A stretch of 64,000 nt of DNA from a virus: positions 1 through 64,000 of IMG/VR virus record IMGVR_UViG_3300045988_005351. One strand, written 5' to 3'. Below, piece after piece: positions 1,548 through 31,204 of the stretch (position 1 is its first letter; every line of letters starts with the position of its first letter). Made by a program: the position numbers and the translations under genes. The notes beneath the pieces are model-generated. The model ran no database searches and was not told where the DNA came from. It saw only the letters and a list, made by a program, of their open reading frames with translations.

Positions 1548-1932
1548 GGGGCTGTTTGGTTTTGACTGGTGGCTACTGGGTATGAGGACATGCAGAGACT
1601 GATGGAGAGACATCAAAACTTTAGGTGGCAACAGAATTTCTGCACCTGTAGCTCTTGCTGCTTAAGCAATCTACTGAGTTAGTCACTGACTTGGAAACAG
1701 AATAGTGACAAAACAAGTAAGGTCAAGAAGGAAGTATAATAAAGCTATACCTACTTTCAGTGCTTAATGGGTGTGACCTTTCAGATTTCTTGCATAGATG
1801 AATGCAAGTGGTGGATGATGTTGACAATCCAGTCAACCCCAGCAGAGAACCAACTGCATAATAAAGTGGTAAGCATGTGTAATCCTTATATTGAGGGCTA
1901 TTAGGACAGGGGTTCAACTCCCCTCAGCTCCA
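1548..1932 (+). ncRNA. ssrA: tmRNA (SsrA), tag peptide GNRISAPVALAA
   Basis: The 5' end ggggctgtttggttttgac and 3' end ggacaggggttcaactcccctcagctcca match the tRNA-like ends of bacterial SsrA (acceptor ggggctg/cagctcc, T arm gggg-ttcaact-cccc). The internal frame ggc aac aga att tct gca cct gta gct ctt gct gct taa (1627-1665) ends in the canonical ALAA-stop. Confidence 0.9.
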
Positions 1933-1963
1933 CAATTAACATCAACAATTAAATTACATTAGA

Positions 1964-2932: not shown

Positions 2933-4351
2933 ATGTGTTCTAAATTAAATCCAAGATTAAAGCCTGCACCTAAGTTTGAGGACACTCAACTGGCAGGTGG
3001 TTATGGTGCATTAGCTGCTAGACAATCCAATGTAGCATTGCTTAGAAGAGCAGTGCTGGCTAATCTCCTTTGGGAAGATGTAGCATACATGGATGGTGAG
3101 AAAGTAGCCAATGAGATTAAGAGGTTAATACCTCTGTGTCCTGCTGAGGATGTATATAACATAGCTCTTGAAGCTAGGTTAATGCAGAAACTGAGACATA
3201 CTCCATTGTTTATAGCAGTGGAAATGTGCAAGTACCCTGAACATAAGTTATTTGTTAAGGACTTGTTACCAAAGATAATCACAAGAGCTGATATGCTCAC
3301 TGACTTCTTGGCTATATATTGGAAGGGCAAGAAATGCCCTATCTGTAACCAAGCTAAGAAAGGTCTGGCTTTAGCCTTCCACAACTTCAATGAGTATAAG
3401 TTGGCTAAGTATGACAGAGATGCTGCTATCAAGCTCAGAGATGTGATGTTCTTGGTACATGCCAAGCCTAGAAATCAGTATGAGCAGGAGTTGTTCAATA
3501 AGGTAGCTGAGAGAACTCTCACACCACCTGAGACATGGGAAGTCATGTTATCTAGAGGTGAGGATAAGAAAGCTACTTGGACTAAGCTCATTACAGAAGG
3601 TAAGATAGGAGGATTAGCTATGTTGAGGAATATAGCTAATATGCAGAAAGCTAATGTGGATAGAAAGACTATTCAAGATGGTCTTAAGACACTGAGAAGC
3701 TCAATGCTGTTACCTCTTGACTTCTGGAAGGCTGCTAGGATGAACTCAGTATTTGAGAGAGACATTGAGGATGCTATGATTGAGGCATATAAGAACTTAC
3801 CTAAACTTCCTGGTAAGACACTGTTTATAGTGGATGTATCAGGTTCTATGGGTTCTTTAACCTCTGGTAGTTCTCAGTTCAATAGAATGGACCAAGCCTG
3901 TGCTATGGCTATCTTGGCAGCTAATCAGTGTGAGGACTATGAGCTTGTAGCCACAGCAGGTAATGATGGTTCAAGAAGGAATGCCTCAGAGTGGATTGAA
4001 TATCCCAAGAGAGGTTTTGCTCTTGCTCCACAGATAATGGAGACCAGACATAGGATTGGTGGTGGAGGTATATTCACCAGACAGTGCCTAGAATGGTGTA
4101 AGAATAAGTTCAAAGACAAGAAGTTTGATAGAATTATTATATTCTCAGACTCTCAAGACTGTGACTATCCTGAGAAGATAGTACCTAAACCATTTGGTAC
4201 ATATAACTACATTGTAGATGTATCTGCCCATACAAGAGGAGTGAACTACAAGGGTGTATGGACTGCTGAAGTGAGTGGTTGGAGCGAGAGCTTTATAACA
4301 TTTATAGCTGCTTTAGAAGGTTTGGAAAACAAATTTGATGAAGATGCTTAA
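2933..4351 (+). CDS. rsr: Ro60/Rsr-like RNA-binding protein (TROVE domain + vWA domain)
   Basis: KYDRDAAIKLRDVMFLVHAKP and GGLAMLRNIANM align by eye with the Ro60 blocks [21 protein letters not shown] and LTALLRNLGKM. A C-terminal vWA MIDAS motif follows (FIVDVSGSMGS). Confidence 0.75.
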   Translation: MCSKLNPRLKPAPKFEDTQLAGGYGALAARQSNVALLRRAVLANLLWEDVAYMDGEKVANEIKRLIPLCPAEDVYNIALEARLMQKLRHTPLFIAVEMCKYPEHKLFVKDLLPKIITRADMLTDFLAIYWKGKKCPICNQAKKGLALAFHNFNEYKLAKYDRDAAIKLRDVMFLVHAKPRNQYEQELFNKVAERTLTPPETWEVMLSRGEDKKATWTKLITEGKIGGLAMLRNIANMQKANVDRKTIQDGLKTLRSSMLLPLDFWKAARMNSVFERDIEDAMIEAYKNLPKLPGKTLFIVDVSGSMGSLTSGSSQFNRMDQACAMAILAANQCEDYELVATAGNDGSRRNASEWIEYPKRGFALAPQIMETRHRIGGGGIFTRQCLEWCKNKFKDKKFDRIIIFSDSQDCDYPEKIVPKPFGTYNYIVDVSAHTRGVNYKGVWTAEVSGWSESFITFIAALEGLENKFDEDA

Positions 4352-4462
4352 GTTGTGTAAAGTTTGTCAAATCTCAGACTTAGTAATGAGTAGAGAAAAG
4401 ATGAAAGAGCAACTGTGATAATTTCAACACTCTGACGAGTGTTCTATAGGCTTTTAACTATA

Positions 4463-4554
4463 AAAGGTATCATTAGTGAGGATAGGAGTTACTTCAGCTT
4501 GAAAATGTAATTCTAGCCAATCAATACTCCTGTCAGGAGTTCTATGATACCTTT
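4463..4554 (+). ncRNA. 92-nt stem-enclosed structured RNA element carrying motif copy 1
   Basis: An 11-bp perfect closing stem aaaggtatcat (4463-4473) / atgataccttt (4544-4554). Inside are the TAGTGA..AGTTACTTCA hairpin and the hairpin actcct-gtc-aggagt. It abuts tRNA-Lys. Confidence 0.35.
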
Positions 4555-4560
4555 CACATG

Positions 4561-4705
4561 GAGGAGTTAGCTCAGATGGTAGAGCAGTTTTATAGAATCA
4601 TACTCTATACACCTTTCTCTCTATATCAATGAGTAGTGAAGTGTAGAGTTACTTCAATAATGCCTTTTAAGCAACAGGTCATAGGTTCAAGTCCTATACT
4701 CCTCC
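4561..4705 (+). tRNA. tRNA-Lys (UUU) interrupted by a 72-nt insertion (4590-4661) in the anticodon stem
   Basis: Acceptor gaggagt/actcctc, D arm gctc-agatggta-gagc, T arm atagg-ttcaagt-cctat. Joining gtt (to 4589) to gc (from 4662) gives anticodon stem gttgc/gcaac with loop ctTTTaa and a canonical 73-nt tRNA. Confidence 0.65.
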
Positions 4706-4769
4706 CTTACTTTGTTGGATTTGTGTGTTCTACCTCACTGGTATGTGAATATAGGTGAGGTTTCTACAA

Positions 4770-4908
4770 GGCGGAGTAGCTAAATGGTAAAGCAACACCC
4801 TTACAGAATTTCTCTGGTAAAGCAGTAGTGAGTTGTTAGGGTTACTTCAAGGTTATAGCATTAGTTTCATGGTACTAAAGTATGTAAGTTCGAGTCTTAC
4901 CTCCGCCA
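4770..4908 (+). tRNA. tRNA-like gene (CAU-type anticodon, 8-nt loop) with a ~66-nt insertion (4795-4860) after the D arm
   Basis: Acceptor ggcggag/ctccgcc, D arm gcta-aatggta-aagc, anticodon stem ttagt/actaa with loop ttCATggt (8 nt), variable agtat, T arm gtaag-ttcgagt-cttac. Confidence 0.55.
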
Positions 4909-5112
4909 CTTATTACCTACCTCACCTAGCGTAGTTGTACAGAGTGAGACCTAATAGGAAGCATCAAAGGAACTATCCTAGCCACACTGGTATGCTGTTC
5001 AGTGAGTGAGAAAATGAGCAGCCCCGAAGCATAGTGGGGATAATGTCAAGGAGTACCATCCTTAAGCAGCTATGTAAAACTGGTTGACAATCTGGAAAGA
5101 CAGATAATAAAT

Positions 5113-5240
5113 GGGGGAGTAGCTAAATTGGTTACAATACTCTAGCTGTTATTCTCTGGAAGCAGTAGTGTTAGCAAAGAGTTACTTCAAGCATTCATCT
5201 GATAAATGAAAGTATATTGGTTCGAGTCCAATCTCCCCCA
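5113..5240 (+). tRNA. tRNA-Ile (GAU) with a ~54-nt insertion (about 5135-5188) in the D loop
   Basis: Acceptor gggggag/ctccccc. D-stem strands gcta (5122-5125) and aagc (5189-5192) are separated by the insertion. Anticodon arm ttcat-ctGATaa-atgaa, variable agtat, T arm attgg-ttcgagt-ccaat. Confidence 0.6.
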
Positions 5241-5464
5241 CAAGATAGAGATTAGTGAATGTTACAGTTACTTCATATTATGACTAGTATATTTGTTTAA
5301 CATTCAATCAAGAAAGGAGTAGATTTATTTACAACTTTTCAATTCAACCAACTGTGGCAGAGTTGTTCTACCTCTATTAAGAGGGCTGTGGTAGCAATAC
5401 TATAGTCCTCTTTCTTTTTGATAACTGTGTTAGCTACATATATTGTATTACTAAAAGAAAAAGT

Positions 5465-5860
5465 ATGACAAAGACAAAGGAAAGTGTCGAGAGAGTCGAG
5501 GACTTGAAGGCACAAGTGAAAGACCTTCTTGGTGTAGATGCCATGATGGATGAAGATGTGACTAAGGACATGAAGGAAACCCTTATCACTCAAGCTAAGA
5601 ACAATGGTGAGGAACACATCGAAGAGGTGATTGACACCATTGAGAAAGCACTTGAGAAGATTAAGGACCCTGAGTTCAAGGCTATCATCGCTTCTATCAT
5701 CTGGACTAAGTGTCCTATGGGTATGCAGGAGTCCTGCATTGAACTCCACAACAAGATACTATGTGCTGCAATGGCTGCTCATATGCAGAAGCACACTGAG
5801 GGCAATCCCCTTGTAGGTCTTGCACTGCTGGCAGCTACATTGAAAAACAAACTGCAATGA
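5465..5860 (+). CDS. hypothetical acidic protein (131 aa)
   Basis: ATG ORF, plausible composition, coupled to the next gene (ATGA overlap at 5857). Confidence 0.55.
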   Translation: MTKTKESVERVEDLKAQVKDLLGVDAMMDEDVTKDMKETLITQAKNNGEEHIEEVIDTIEKALEKIKDPEFKAIIASIIWTKCPMGMQESCIELHNKILCAAMAAHMQKHTEGNPLVGLALLAATLKNKLQ

Positions 5861-28859: not shown

Positions 28860-30980
28860 TGGATGAGTGGTTTGAAGAAGGAAAGCATGAAGCTATCAAG
28901 TACTATGGTGAGCAGATATACTATGTGTCTGGAGTTGCAAACTTATTTAGTGATGCAGAGATAGGATGTCCTTATAAGAATATATCAGTAAGGGAATCAC
29001 TGGAGCTTCTCAGTACACTAAAGGTTGTAGGATTGGATAGTGAGACTAGAGGTACAGAGATATGGCAAGGTCAGCTGCTGTTACTTCAATTAGGTAACAA
29101 GCACTTTCAAGTAGTCATTGACTGTACCACTGTAGATGTCAAGCTATACAAGGAGTTCCTTGAGAGTGATAGGCTTTTCATAATTCATAATGCCAAGTTT
29201 GACCTAAGATGGTTATATAAGGAGGGTATTGTAATCAGAAATGTATTTGATACTTTCCTTGCAGAGAAGATACTGTTCCTGGGATTTCCACCAGGAATAG
29301 TGTCACTCAGCTTGCAGGCTTGTTGTGACAGGTATCTTAATGTCTACCTTGACAAGACAGTCAGAGGTAAGATTAACTATGGTGTCACTGATGAGGTAAT
29401 AATCTATTCAGCCAATGATGTTGTGTTCCTTGAAGATGTCATGGAAGCACAGTTAAAGCAGATAGAGGCTAGAGGTCAGAGAGTTGCCTTAGAGATAGAG
29501 AACAGGTTTGTGAGAGTATTGGCTTATATTGAGTTCTGTGGTATAAGGCTTGACATTGAAAGGTGGAAAGCCAAGATGGTTAAGGATGCTGAAAGACTGA
29601 GAGAAGCAGAGCAGAAACTCAATGATTGGGTTGTAGAGTATGTGATGTCCAAAGGAGACACAGATGCTATAGCCTATGATGTTCAGACTAAGGGAGGAAA
29701 GGTAAAGAGAGCTAAGGGTACTGTAGGTAAGTATGTTGCCATAGACCCGCAGCAGAACCTCTTTGAGGAGAACAAGCCAAGATGTATCATTAACTGGAAC
29801 AGTAACAAGCAGGTTATACCATTGTTTGAGGAGTTAGGGTTCAATGTATGGGCTAAAGACAAGAAGACTGGAAAGATGAAGAAGTCAGTAGACTCAAAGC
29901 TGCTTAAACAGCAGTTGGATAAGAGTCCTCTGGCTAAGTTATATCTTGATTACTCTGGTGAGTTCAAGGTAGTTACTTCATTTGGTCAGAACTTCTTGGA
30001 TGCAGTCAATCCTGTTACAGGGAGAATACACCCTACATTCAATCAGATGATGGACACTGGCAGGTTGAGTTGTGGTAAAGGAGGAAAGAAAGGTGGAGGT
30101 AAGACTAAGGATGATGACTTTGCTGAGGAAGAGCAGACTGAGCAGGATGCTGATGTTATCATAGCAGTAGATAAGAGTGTGAATGTTCAGCAGTTGCCAT
30201 CTGATGCAGAGACTAGAGCTTGCTTCATACCTGATAGAGACCATATGTTAGTTGATTGTGATTATGGAGACCAAGAAGGTCATGTCTTTACTGAGCTAAG
30301 TCAGGATAAGGCATGGATTGATTTCTATAATGACCCCAATGAGAGAGATGGTCACTCCTTTGTAGCCAAGATGATATTCTCTGATGAGCTAAAGGATATA
30401 CCAGAGAAGGAAGTAAAGAAGAAGAGGAAAGACTTGAGGGATGCTGCTAAGCCAGCTAGGTTCACATTTAATTATAATGGAACAGCCAATGCTCTAGCAG
30501 CTAACACAGGTAAGTCTCTTGAGTTCTGTGAGTTATGCTTTAAGAAGTATTTCTCAGCATTCAAAGGTATAGCCAGCTACTTTAGGGTAAGTAAGGCTAA
30601 TATGTGGAAAAGAGGTTATATCCTAATCTCAAAGTACACTGGATTGAGAGCTTACATCTATGACTATCCTATACTGAAAGGCATAGAGAGAAGAATCAAG
30701 GGAATGGGTCAGGAGTTCTGGGATTCCTATAGGAAAGCCAGAGACTCTGGTCAAGTCATTGATGATGTCCCTGTTGTGGTTCTTCAACAGATGGCAAGGA
30801 AGTTTGCCAATGGAGAGCCTATGGAGGCTATTGCTATAAGGTATGAGTATAAGGTCAAGAAGGGTAAGAAGATTGAGACAAAGTATATAGACATTAACAG
30901 GGAGACTGTATTGATTAAACTCTGGAAGCATCTGGCAAAGAGGAGGTCATCATCTGAGAATCAGTCCTGTAACTATCCCT
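28859..30980 (+). CDS. family A DNA polymerase, exon 1 (3'-5' exonuclease + palm/fingers to motif B)
   Basis: Exo I VGLDSET, Exo II HNAKFDLRWL, Exo III YSANDVVFL, motif A LVDCDYGDQEGHVF, motif B RDAAKPARFTFNYNGT. Homology ends at ...ENQSCNYP; the unspliced frame adds unrelated LIVGAYSGDII-stop. Confidence 0.75.
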
Positions 30981-31204
30981 TAATTGTGGGGGCATATAGT
31001 GGTGACATTATATGAAAACTCAGTGAATTGCTGGAAGGCTAAGGAGAAATCTATGCTAATCAGCAGCCAAGACTTGTAGAAATGCAAGTAAGGTTCAGAG
31101 ACTAATCAAAGTAAGCTAAGGAGAAATCTATGCTGAAATGGGCAAGAGTGCTGAGTATCTCTTAATTATTTATTTACCCTATTGGACAATTAAGAAATAA
31201 TTTG

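Follow-up and report, generated by a model that had tools for sequence, protein, structure and literature searches.

An operon in the early region of a crAss001-like phage probably encodes a Ro60-type ring protein together with an array of its own Y-RNA-like partners. It lies within positions 2933 to 5464 of a 64,000-nucleotide (nt) stretch of phage DNA (IMG/VR virus record IMGVR_UViG_3300045988_005351, positions 1 to 64,000), which is referred to here as the window. Ro60-Y RNA particles are conserved from bacteria to humans. In the window, the 1.1 kb that follows the Ro60 gene is an array of five or six small RNAs sharing one structural module: the stand-alone elements E1, E5 and the decayed E0, and the tRNA-like genes T1, T2 and T3. 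The initial annotation of the window, made from the sequence alone, had proposed a "phage Ro60-Y RNA module". This is still the best reading, because the covarying module is found essentially only beside TROVE genes and its 5' box grades into the GNCGAAN0-1G motif of YrlA RNAs.

The Ro60 homologue

By sequence profile, by its match to a phage Ro60 and by predicted fold, the product of the open reading frame (ORF) at 2933-4351 is a Ro60 homologue. The ORF was confirmed on the + strand (472 aa), and it holds the peptides KYDRDAAIKLRDVMFLVHAKP, GGLAMLRNIANM and FIVDVSGSM by which it had been recognised by eye. The TROVE assignment is upheld by Pfam (PF05731, E=1.7e-10; 41.1 bits, where the gathering score is 23). 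The claim of a C-terminal vWA domain with a MIDAS motif (metal-ion-dependent adhesion site) stands as well: the motif DVSGSM is present at residues 301-306, and the MIDAS residues D301, S303, S305 and D406 are invariant, and T341 nearly so, among 46 homologues, but the Pfam profiles vWA_Ro60 and VWA_2 match only at E~1e-3, under their gathering scores.

When all PDB sequences were searched with phmmer, the sole match was the Ro60 of Thermus phage phiLo (9KOP/9L5Y, E=1.3e-13), in an alignment spanning residues 25-463. An AlphaFold2 model built with the 46 homologues as input reached a predicted local distance difference test (pLDDT) score of 85.5 and a predicted template modelling (pTM) score of 0.80, and its C-terminal half is Rossmann-like beta/alpha. 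With this model, the top 13 PDB matches in Foldseek were all Ro60/Rsr proteins (E 3e-16 to 1e-9), with phiLo first and Xenopus (TM 0.68-0.74), human and Deinococcus radiodurans Rsr among them; the ranks after these 13 held generic vWA domains only. The TROVE subfamily comprises ~700 clusters at 50% identity with E<=1e-30, and its members in cultured phages come from phages of Caulobacter, Brevundimonas, Xanthomonas/Xylella, Ralstonia, Rhizobium, Microcystis, Halogranum and Thermus.

A shared RNA module after the Ro60 gene

The region after the gene had been described as free of ORFs, and it is: the longest + strand ORF in 4352-5464 has 40 aa. The pattern TAGTG-N8-11-GTTACTTCA occurs five times in the window, against 0.16 copies expected from dinucleotide shuffles; the initial annotation had not noticed this repeat. 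The copies start at 4474, 4634, 4826, 5166 and 5253, all on the + strand and all within 4474-5275. Every module copy, E0 included, lies 7-1030 nt downstream of the Ro60 gene and on its strand.

The module is built in the order P1, a bulged U, AGUG opposite GUUCU, P3 and UUACUUCA, where P1 and P3 are helices. Across the window and 57 related loci, strand X reads P1x - U - (A/G)GUG - 2-4 nt - P3x - UUACUUC(A/G), and strand Y reads P3y - 3-5 nt - (G/U/A)UUC(U/C) - P1y. The pairs of the core helix are A-U or G-C, G-C, U-U and G-U, with the bulged U adjoining P1. The 5' boxes of the window are AGUGAAG, AGUGAGG, AGUGAGU, AGUGUUA and AGUGAAU. Stand-alone elements begin with X and finish with Y, and their 5' and 3' ends are therefore closed by P1. 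The tRNA-like genes have Y in front, then a 3-bp capped P1 and then X, which makes the module a closed side arm. A local hairpin pairing UAGUG with UUACU was considered and rejected, as the U-to-A variant UUACAUCA is uncompensated whereas UAGUG covaries perfectly with GUUCU.

Covariation of the module and of its tRNA-embedded forms

For a composite ungapped alignment, 111 distinct modules were taken together; they come from the window, from the crAss001-like loci and from a set of 80 loci in distant phages. Standard pairs occupy 91.7% of its cells (59.7% when shuffled), two-sided changes are seen in 651 cells (211 when shuffled), and the covariation score is 0.82 (0.21 when shuffled and 0.08-0.16 when the partners are slid), these values being inflated by the choice of the P1 and P3 strands as best complements. 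The inflation is mitigated by a comparison with shuffled X strands, by a pair that took no part in the selection and by an independent RNAalifold run. Shuffled X strands mostly formed 5-6 of the 8 pairs, while the real data reached 7-8 of 8 in 277 of 305. The unselected pair, between the A/G of U(A/G)GUG and the last base of UUC(U/C), is U-A in 74 modules, C-G in 37 and unpaired in none; since it swaps in this way and is never open, the core is a short sequence-specific helix.

RNAalifold, run unguided on 24 genes of the T2/T3 class, recovered the acceptor stem and the T arm, an anticodon stem of 5 bp, and all three helices of the module (P3, P1 and the one with the bulged U), with compensatory pairs at 18 of 29. 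To this structure a long-range 3-bp D-stem that encloses the module (GCU/AGC vs GUG/CAC) was added, after which 98.6% of cells were paired, 20 of the 32 pairs showed two-sided changes, and the covariation score was 0.51 compared with 0.19 for shuffled and 0.04-0.10 for slid partners. From the RNAalifold run and these pair counts, T2 and T3 are complete cloverleaves that carry a module of ~55 nt in the D-loop. Covariation thus supports a tRNA cloverleaf in T2 and T3, and T1 has no proper anticodon arm. The three tRNA-shaped genes of the initial annotation are accordingly real, but they are not ordinary tRNAs: with module insertions of 50-55 nt they measure 128-147 nt, compared with ~72-90 nt for a standard tRNA, and their Rfam tRNA scores (Table 1) stand beside a gathering score of 29. 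ARAGORN reports only a tRNA-Arg at 1133 in the window, and misses all three as well as the transfer-messenger RNA (tmRNA).

Among the orthologous scaffolds of the crAss001-like loci (L001-L057; the prefix L denotes loci used in this study), the acceptor stem, D arm and module are near-identical and the anticodon and T arms differ. One scaffold family carries the anticodons GAU, GGU or CAU, and another UGG, AGG, GUA, UGU, GGU or CGU. The swapped arms always keep a 5-bp stem, and their loop has 7 nt, but 8 nt in T2 of the window; the window regions concerned are 4859-4880 and 5195-5211. This arm swapping looks like cassette exchange or diversifying selection.

Linkage of the module to TROVE genes

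The module is close to exclusively linked to TROVE genes. The 57 crAss001-like loci hold 204 motif copies on the same strand as TROVE and directly downstream of it, except for three copies in L046-L048 that lie 2.4-3.5 kb downstream. A distant set of 80 loci was fetched with a profile of distant homologues (23-49% identity to the query), of which 4 proved crAss001-like. Beside the TROVE gene of ~35 of the other 76 the motif is again found, mostly just upstream and almost never on the opposite strand, and it is retained across phages of very different G+C content. Caulobacter phage CcrColossus has five copies upstream of its TROVE gene, Xanthomonas phage Olaya 2-3 copies and a Rhizobium phage ~8. 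In CcrColossus, the RefSeq tRNA-Gln overlaps a YrlA-shaped element with UGGCGUAG...UUACUUCG...GUUCC (L259 1619-1686) and is probably a misannotated Y RNA.

The reciprocal test led to the same result. In an IMG/VR scan for TAGTG-N6-14-AGTTACTTCA, the matches listed were mostly single chance ones, and a filter for the full module was needed. The bare DNA pattern was used to fetch 120 loci, and the full module is present in 15 of them; 11 of these 15 have an adjacent TROVE gene and 2 more are truncated crAss loci. TROVE was present in just 1 of the 105 loci that failed the full-module test.

Relationship to YrlA RNAs

For YrlA RNAs, Chen et al. (2014) proposed the motif GNCGAAN0-1G as the Ro60 contact; a helix and then a YUAY box come after it (PMC4201824). 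Rfam Y RNA and YrlA models gave no match in positions 4200-5600 of the window even at E<=10, and a Y RNA relationship therefore had to be sought by comparison with other phages. The elements of the distant phages are laid out like canonical YrlA, starting with the 5' stem strand and the V region, continuing through the T arm, a closed acceptor-like hairpin and the D arm, and finishing with the 3' stem strand. The Rfam YrlA model (RF02553) matches the T-AS-D core of one of them with 38.6 bits (E=5e-7 in a 551-nt search; gathering score 69), and none among 20 distant loci is matched at the gathering score. Their 5' box is mostly (U)GGCG(A/U)AG, that is, GNCGAAN0-1G, and a graded series runs from GGCG(A/U)A through GGUG(A/U)A to AGUG(A/U)N, the G-to-A change being compensated on the Y strand. 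As distant relatives of the same RNA class have GGCG(A/U)AG, the crAss box is a derived C-to-U variant. The better mapping onto YrlA equates the box with GNCGAA, P3 with YrlA helix 2 and UUAC with YUAY. Identity of the GUUCC strand with the "GuucC" of the Rfam YrlA consensus was also considered and is now judged coincidental, and the Rfam matches to the long noncoding RNAs ZFAT-AS1_1 and bxd_5 in 4200-5600 are noise.

Given the YrlA-shaped elements of distant phages and the graded box series, the window RNAs are, as far as sequence and structure comparison can tell, divergent members of the Y-RNA world. In terms of connectivity, E1 and E5 are terminal stems without a tRNA-like domain, and T1-T3 have such a domain with the connectivity opposite to that of YrlA. 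T1 can be described as a circular permutation of YrlA in which the Ro60 stem replaces the anticodon arm and is capped, the acceptor stem being open; T2 and T3 would be a further variant of the permuted form that keeps the anticodon arm. Permuted forms also exist outside the crAss001 group (L198, L183). There is a third topology, in L034 and L005, in which the module is a 5'/3' extension that replaces the acceptor stem around a D-anticodon-T body.

Several observations weigh against reading the array as Y RNA partners. The Rfam Y RNA/YrlA scan of the post-gene region, which the initial annotation had proposed as a check, gave no match, and the strict GNCGAA motif is absent from the window RNAs. 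The pairing statistics carry the inflation mentioned above. The region upstream of the Ro60 gene of phiLo, the sole relative with a solved structure, has no copy of the UAGUG...UACUUCA...GUUCU module, and the motif is therefore not universal for the protein family.

Alternative explanations

The hairpins and repeated words could be chance, or generic intergenic repeats of the repetitive extragenic palindromic (REP) kind without specific function. The single-sequence fold z-scores of T1-T3 and E5, which are modest (-1.7 to -2.4), would fit this, but the other evidence speaks the other way: the motif has been kept across differing G+C and 23-49% protein identity, and compensatory change is extensive both in the 111 modules and in the 24 tRNA-like genes. 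Together with the motif count in the window and the reciprocal TROVE test, these covariation sets effectively refute this explanation, which we consider very improbable. It is also unlikely that the stems are cis-acting parts of the Ro60 transcript, and not Y RNAs that act in trans; as such parts they might stabilise the 3' untranslated region (UTR) or block exonucleases, bind protein for autoregulation, or punctuate processing. A cis role would fit the lack of a terminator-like site separating gene and array, and the location of the elements in the TROVE 5' leader of many distant phages. However, a UTR would hardly explain as many as 5-8 copies in a genome whose apical domains are diverse and include full tRNA-like bodies with acceptor stems competent for processing; the elements lie upstream in some phages and downstream in others, and the homologous YrlA and Yrl RNAs are discrete Ro60-bound RNAs in the systems studied (PMC4201824, PMC12135203). 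The two roles are not mutually exclusive.

In a different account, T1-T3 are ordinary decoding tRNA genes, each broken by a mobile or intron-like insertion that would be taken out before the tRNA is used. The stand-alone copies would then be insertions that were excised or stand solo, and the Ro60 gene a coincidental neighbour or a processing factor only. The complete cloverleaves of T2 and T3 with their 5-bp anticodon stems and 7-nt loops, the 10-nt direct repeat TGGTAAAGCA at 4785 and 4815 in T2, and the frequent homing-endonuclease genes or remnants of the neighbourhood speak for it. Yet the module's own structure is conserved and covaries, and its box shades into the motif by which YrlA binds Ro60; in distant phages it forms the terminal stem of RNAs with the canonical YrlA shape, in which there is no interrupted tRNA; and in the 120-locus test it tracks TROVE genes, not tRNA genes. 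Anticodons vary between orthologous scaffolds, and T1 is without a real anticodon arm. Moreover, we know of no bacterial splicing that removes a ~55-nt hairpin from a D-loop. We therefore regard the insertion account as quite unlikely and return to a Ro60 protein with its own Y-RNA-like partners.

Elements of the array

The coordinates of the array and of its neighbours are summarized in Table 1.

Table 1. Features of the Ro60 locus in the window, with the basis of each assignment.
Feature	Position	Strand	Basis or remark
Ro60 homologue gene, 472 aa	2933..4351	+	predicted TROVE/HEAT-repeat ring and vWA domain; MIDAS DVSGSM
E0, decayed stand-alone module	~4358..4455	+	by-eye comparison with intact orthologues L006 5423-5502, L055 5418-5503
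E1, stand-alone Y-RNA-like stem-loop (YrlB-like)	4463..4554	+	fold, motif, family listing
T1, tRNA-like gene	4560..4706	+	Rfam tRNA 21.6 bits for 4643-4705
Hairpin with invariant loop CUGGUAUGUGAAUAUAGG	4733..4760	+	9 nt upstream of T2
T2, full cloverleaf tRNA-like gene	4770..4908	+	Rfam tRNA 48.7 bits, 67-nt insertion
T2-T3 spacer, ~205 nt	4909..5112	+	conserved in four nearest relatives only (82-98% identity)
T3, full cloverleaf tRNA-like gene	5113..5240	+	Rfam tRNA 28.6 bits, partial match
E5, stand-alone module with long apical region	5245..5377	+	orthologues L004, L005, L049
Intrinsic-terminator-like hairpin and T-run closing the array	5379..5420 (hairpin 5379-5412)	+	terminator scan
tmRNA gene (context, outside the module)	1548..1935	+	Rfam RF00023, 91 bits, E=4.5e-34

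E1 is the 92-nt stem-enclosed element that had been noticed at the outset. It consists of P1 (4463-4473/4544-4554, an 11-bp closing stem), UAGUG (4474-4478), UUACUUCA (4489-4496) and GUUCU (4539-4543), with a minimum free energy of -28.7 kcal/mol and z=-3.9, and its P1 shows compensatory changes in relatives, for example AAAGGTATCAT/ATGATACCTTT versus AAAGACATCAT/ATGATGTCTTT. E0 retains both helices, P1 as well as P3, and at 4441-4445 the GUUCU strand, but its 5' boxes are lost (UAGUG to CAAAU, UUACUUCA to UUAGUAAU) and its fold is weak (z=-1.7). In E5, P1 is formed by 5245-5252/5370-5377, UAGUG lies at 5253-5257 and GUUCU at 5365-5369, and the P3 pairing UGUUACAG/CUGUGGCA was read from the sequence. 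Its apical region contains a purine-rich box, AAGAAAGGAGUAGAUUU (5310-5326), which is conserved from the window lineage to the crAss001 lineage despite differing surroundings and is a candidate effector-binding site.

T1 has a 7-8 bp acceptor stem, a canonical local D-arm (UAGCUCAGAUGGUAGAGCA) and a T-arm. Its module (4602-4656) follows the D-arm, with a P1 capped as CUC-loop-GAG, and was included in the covariation set; at the anticodon-arm position there is just a 3-bp mini-hairpin with the loop CUUUUAA. The module of T2 (4797-4849, P1 CUG-GUAAAG-CAG) and that of T3 (5139-5189, P1 CUG-GAAG-CAG) lie within the D-loop. The anticodon loop of T2 is UUCAUGGU, UUUGGGU in close relatives, and that of T3 is CUGAUAA (GAU).

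Between T1 and T2 stands a hairpin whose 18-nt loop CUGGUAUGUGAAUAUAGG also occurs at L007 2322-2347, L014 2551-2576, L008 2426-2451 and elsewhere. Its 4-5-bp stems covary (CCUCA/UGAGG, GCUG/CAGC, GGAGG/UCUCC, GCUA/UAGC), and in ~11 of 14 contexts in crAss001-like phages it is found 3-10 nt before tRNA, tRNA-like or tmRNA genes, for which it may be a promoter or processing signal. The T2-T3 spacer has predicted hairpins, one of whose stems covaries (CCCC/GGGG vs CCUC/GGAG, 5024-5043), and Rfam gave no meaningful match to it. A seventh, divergent module in the spacer (UAGUG 5034-5038, UACCAUC at 5056) was considered, and the evidence was insufficient.

Proposed mechanism

While the comparisons above show to which family the protein belongs and how it folds, and also establish the RNA module with its structure and its linkage to TROVE genes, the course of processing, binding and host targeting that follows is inferred. 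Transcription of the array would accompany that of the Ro60 mRNA or come right after it, and would run to the terminator at 5379-5420; as no terminator-like site was found between the Ro60 stop codon and 5379, the elements are probably co-transcribed with the gene. An equivalent hairpin with T-run ends the array in crAss001, cr112_1 and cr106_1. A scan for sigma-70-type promoters, which covers neither Bacteroides nor crAss promoters, was uninformative (13 sites vs 9 expected). Transcription would occur early in infection, as for the crAss001 TROVE gene (PMC8375218). RNase P and RNase Z would cut at the three tRNA-like genes and free the individual RNAs, and Ro60 would bind the bulged helix of the module on each of them. 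In E1 and E5 the module would be the terminal stem of a stand-alone RNA, and in T1-T3 a capped side arm on a tRNA-shaped body that tethers Ro60 to a tRNA mimic. The apical domain, either a tRNA body or the purine-rich box of E5, may then contact host factors. The particles probably dock on host RNA-handling enzymes, such as PNPase or tRNA-binding enzymes; they would divert or dampen RNA decay and quality control of the host at an early stage of infection. Precedents for such a mechanism are the Rsr-Y RNA-PNPase machine of D. radiodurans and the Ro60-Yrl-PNPase system of Thermus phage phiLo.

It is conceivable, if on balance doubtful, that the D-loop-inserted T2, T3 and their relatives are genuine tRNAs, processed, CCA-tailed and perhaps chargeable, with a Ro60 docking arm. 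If so, the phage would physically couple a ring-shaped RNA-quality-control protein to tRNAs, which could serve as guards or decoys against anticodon nucleases of the host and further defences aimed at tRNAs, or deliver Ro60 to the tRNA-handling machinery. The connectivities interchanged among these RNAs are terminal stem, acceptor extension, anticodon-arm replacement and D-loop insertion; such free interchange would mean that the selected trait is simply Ro60 tethered to a tRNA shape, and would bear directly on the role of the Y RNA tRNA-like domain.

Genome setting

The window is a relative of Bacteroides phage crAss001 (Kehishuvirus), with ~74% nucleotide and ~78% protein identity at the locus. 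GenBank/RefSeq label the homologous gene of crAss001, cr112_1 and cr106_1 as "TROVE domain-containing / RNA-binding protein" and leave the 0.5-0.9 kb behind it as a gap without annotation. The early transcription of the crAss001 gene has been reported (PMC8375218), and the gene was noted earlier as "a possible ribonucleoprotein component".

The tmRNA noted at 1548-1932 was upheld by Rfam with a slightly later end (Table 1). Permuted tmRNAs are also present 3-4 kb from the Ro60 gene, within dense tRNA clusters, at the distant TROVE loci L194 and L197, so that the Ro60/tRNA/tmRNA neighbourhood recurs. Since TROVE genes lie in tRNA/tmRNA clusters of other phages too, it is plausible that the Ro60 array and the tmRNA form one "RNA-surveillance island", as the initial annotation had suggested.

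Directly upstream of the Ro60 gene, a 76-aa ORF at 2687-2917 has a NUMOD4 motif alone (E=3e-13) and probably is what remains of a homing endonuclease. HNH endonuclease genes that are intact occur in relatives at varying positions of this region, and in cr112_1 one stands between the TROVE gene and the RNA array. Elsewhere in the window, Rfam reports a group I intron at 30971-31204 (RF00028, 66 bits, E=1.6e-14). Upstream of the TROVE region, three relatives carry tRNA-like genes of 86-92 nt (L001 715-805, L002 2050-2139, L003 1341-1426), annotated as "tRNA-OTHER (Leu|Ile)(taat)" or tRNA-Ile, with an extended variable anticodon region and no module. In a ~97-kb phage contig (L183), a Pistol ribozyme at 4986-5046 (57.9 bits, gathering score 34.5) lies ~250 nt past the Y-RNA/tRNA array.

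Significance

Phage Ro60 genes with adjacent Y RNAs and the annotation of the crAss001 TROVE gene are known already. The initial annotation had supposed that the system was undescribed for crAss-like phages; this does not hold for the TROVE gene, which is annotated (Gp96) and reported early, but we found no description of the RNAs. In the searchable literature, outside which most subscription journals lie, no paper linking crAss-like phages with Ro60 or Y RNAs was found. New are the RNA partners, the variant docking box, a family outside the Rfam model, the multiplicity and the permuted tRNA-embedded architectures, as well as the rapid swapping of anticodon/T-arm cassettes on otherwise identical scaffolds.

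The crAss001-like phages, relatives of the most abundant human gut viruses, would thus carry their own Ro60 and five or six partner RNAs, as would many unrelated phages, those of Caulobacter, Brevundimonas, Xanthomonas and Rhizobium among them. The RNA class is outside the current Rfam model and unannotated in GenBank records, and apparent "gaps" or odd and pseudo tRNAs at such places should be read with the warning that they are structured RNA genes. Because each permuted, tRNA-embedded form is one unbroken RNA whose acceptor ends are true ones, its processing and charging, the addition of CCA and the recruitment of effectors become directly testable in a culturable system, crAss001 on Bacteroides intestinalis.

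Comparison with known systems

In D. radiodurans, the RYPER complex is composed of Rsr, the Y RNA Yrn1 and PNPase: the stem of the Y RNA binds the Ro60 ring, and its other end binds the effector. RYPER is the template for the mechanism proposed here for the window RNAs, whose apical domains are instead tRNA bodies or the purine-rich conserved box of E5.

Ro60 genes with adjacent Y RNAs have been known in phages since the mycobacteriophages in 2014 (PMC4201824), and were reported for phiLo in 2025 (PMC12135203). In phiLo, Ro60 binds the adjacent Yrl RNAs, and Ro60-Yrl binds and attenuates the host PNPase, whose capture is the role proposed for it (Hu et al. 2025, PMC12135203). Both phiLo and the window have a phage-encoded Ro60 with partner RNAs adjoining its gene. 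The two proteins share just 22-25% identity, although that of phiLo is the closest solved protein. Yrl1 and Yrl2 were identified by a CGAA motif, and tRNA-embedded forms were not reported there (PMC12135203).

YrlA and YrlB stand beside rsr in Salmonella, Mycobacterium and mycobacteriophages (PMC4201824), within a few hundred bases and on the same strand, as do the window RNAs. The two sets are alike in having a stem whose 5' strand bears a conserved box, with a helix and then a box of the YUAY type after it. In both, each genome has one or more RNAs with a tRNA-like domain whose T and D arms are canonical, and YrlB resembles E1 and E5 as a second RNA type without such a domain. In contrast to YrlA and YrlB, the box of the window class is (A/G)GUG(A/U)N, paired to GUUC(U/C) with a bulged U and a U-U mismatch, and the window has five intact copies and one decayed copy rather than two. 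Unlike YrlA, three window copies are permuted, with the acceptor open and the Ro60 stem capped by a loop, and two of them keep a full anticodon arm. In Mycobacterium smegmatis, YrlA undergoes RNase P cleavage and CCA addition, so that its tRNA-like part can be treated as a tRNA, and the cut in the closed acceptor hairpin yields a two-piece RNA (PMC4201824); the window genes, by comparison, are laid out with acceptor ends and a closed Ro60 stem, as one continuous RNA.

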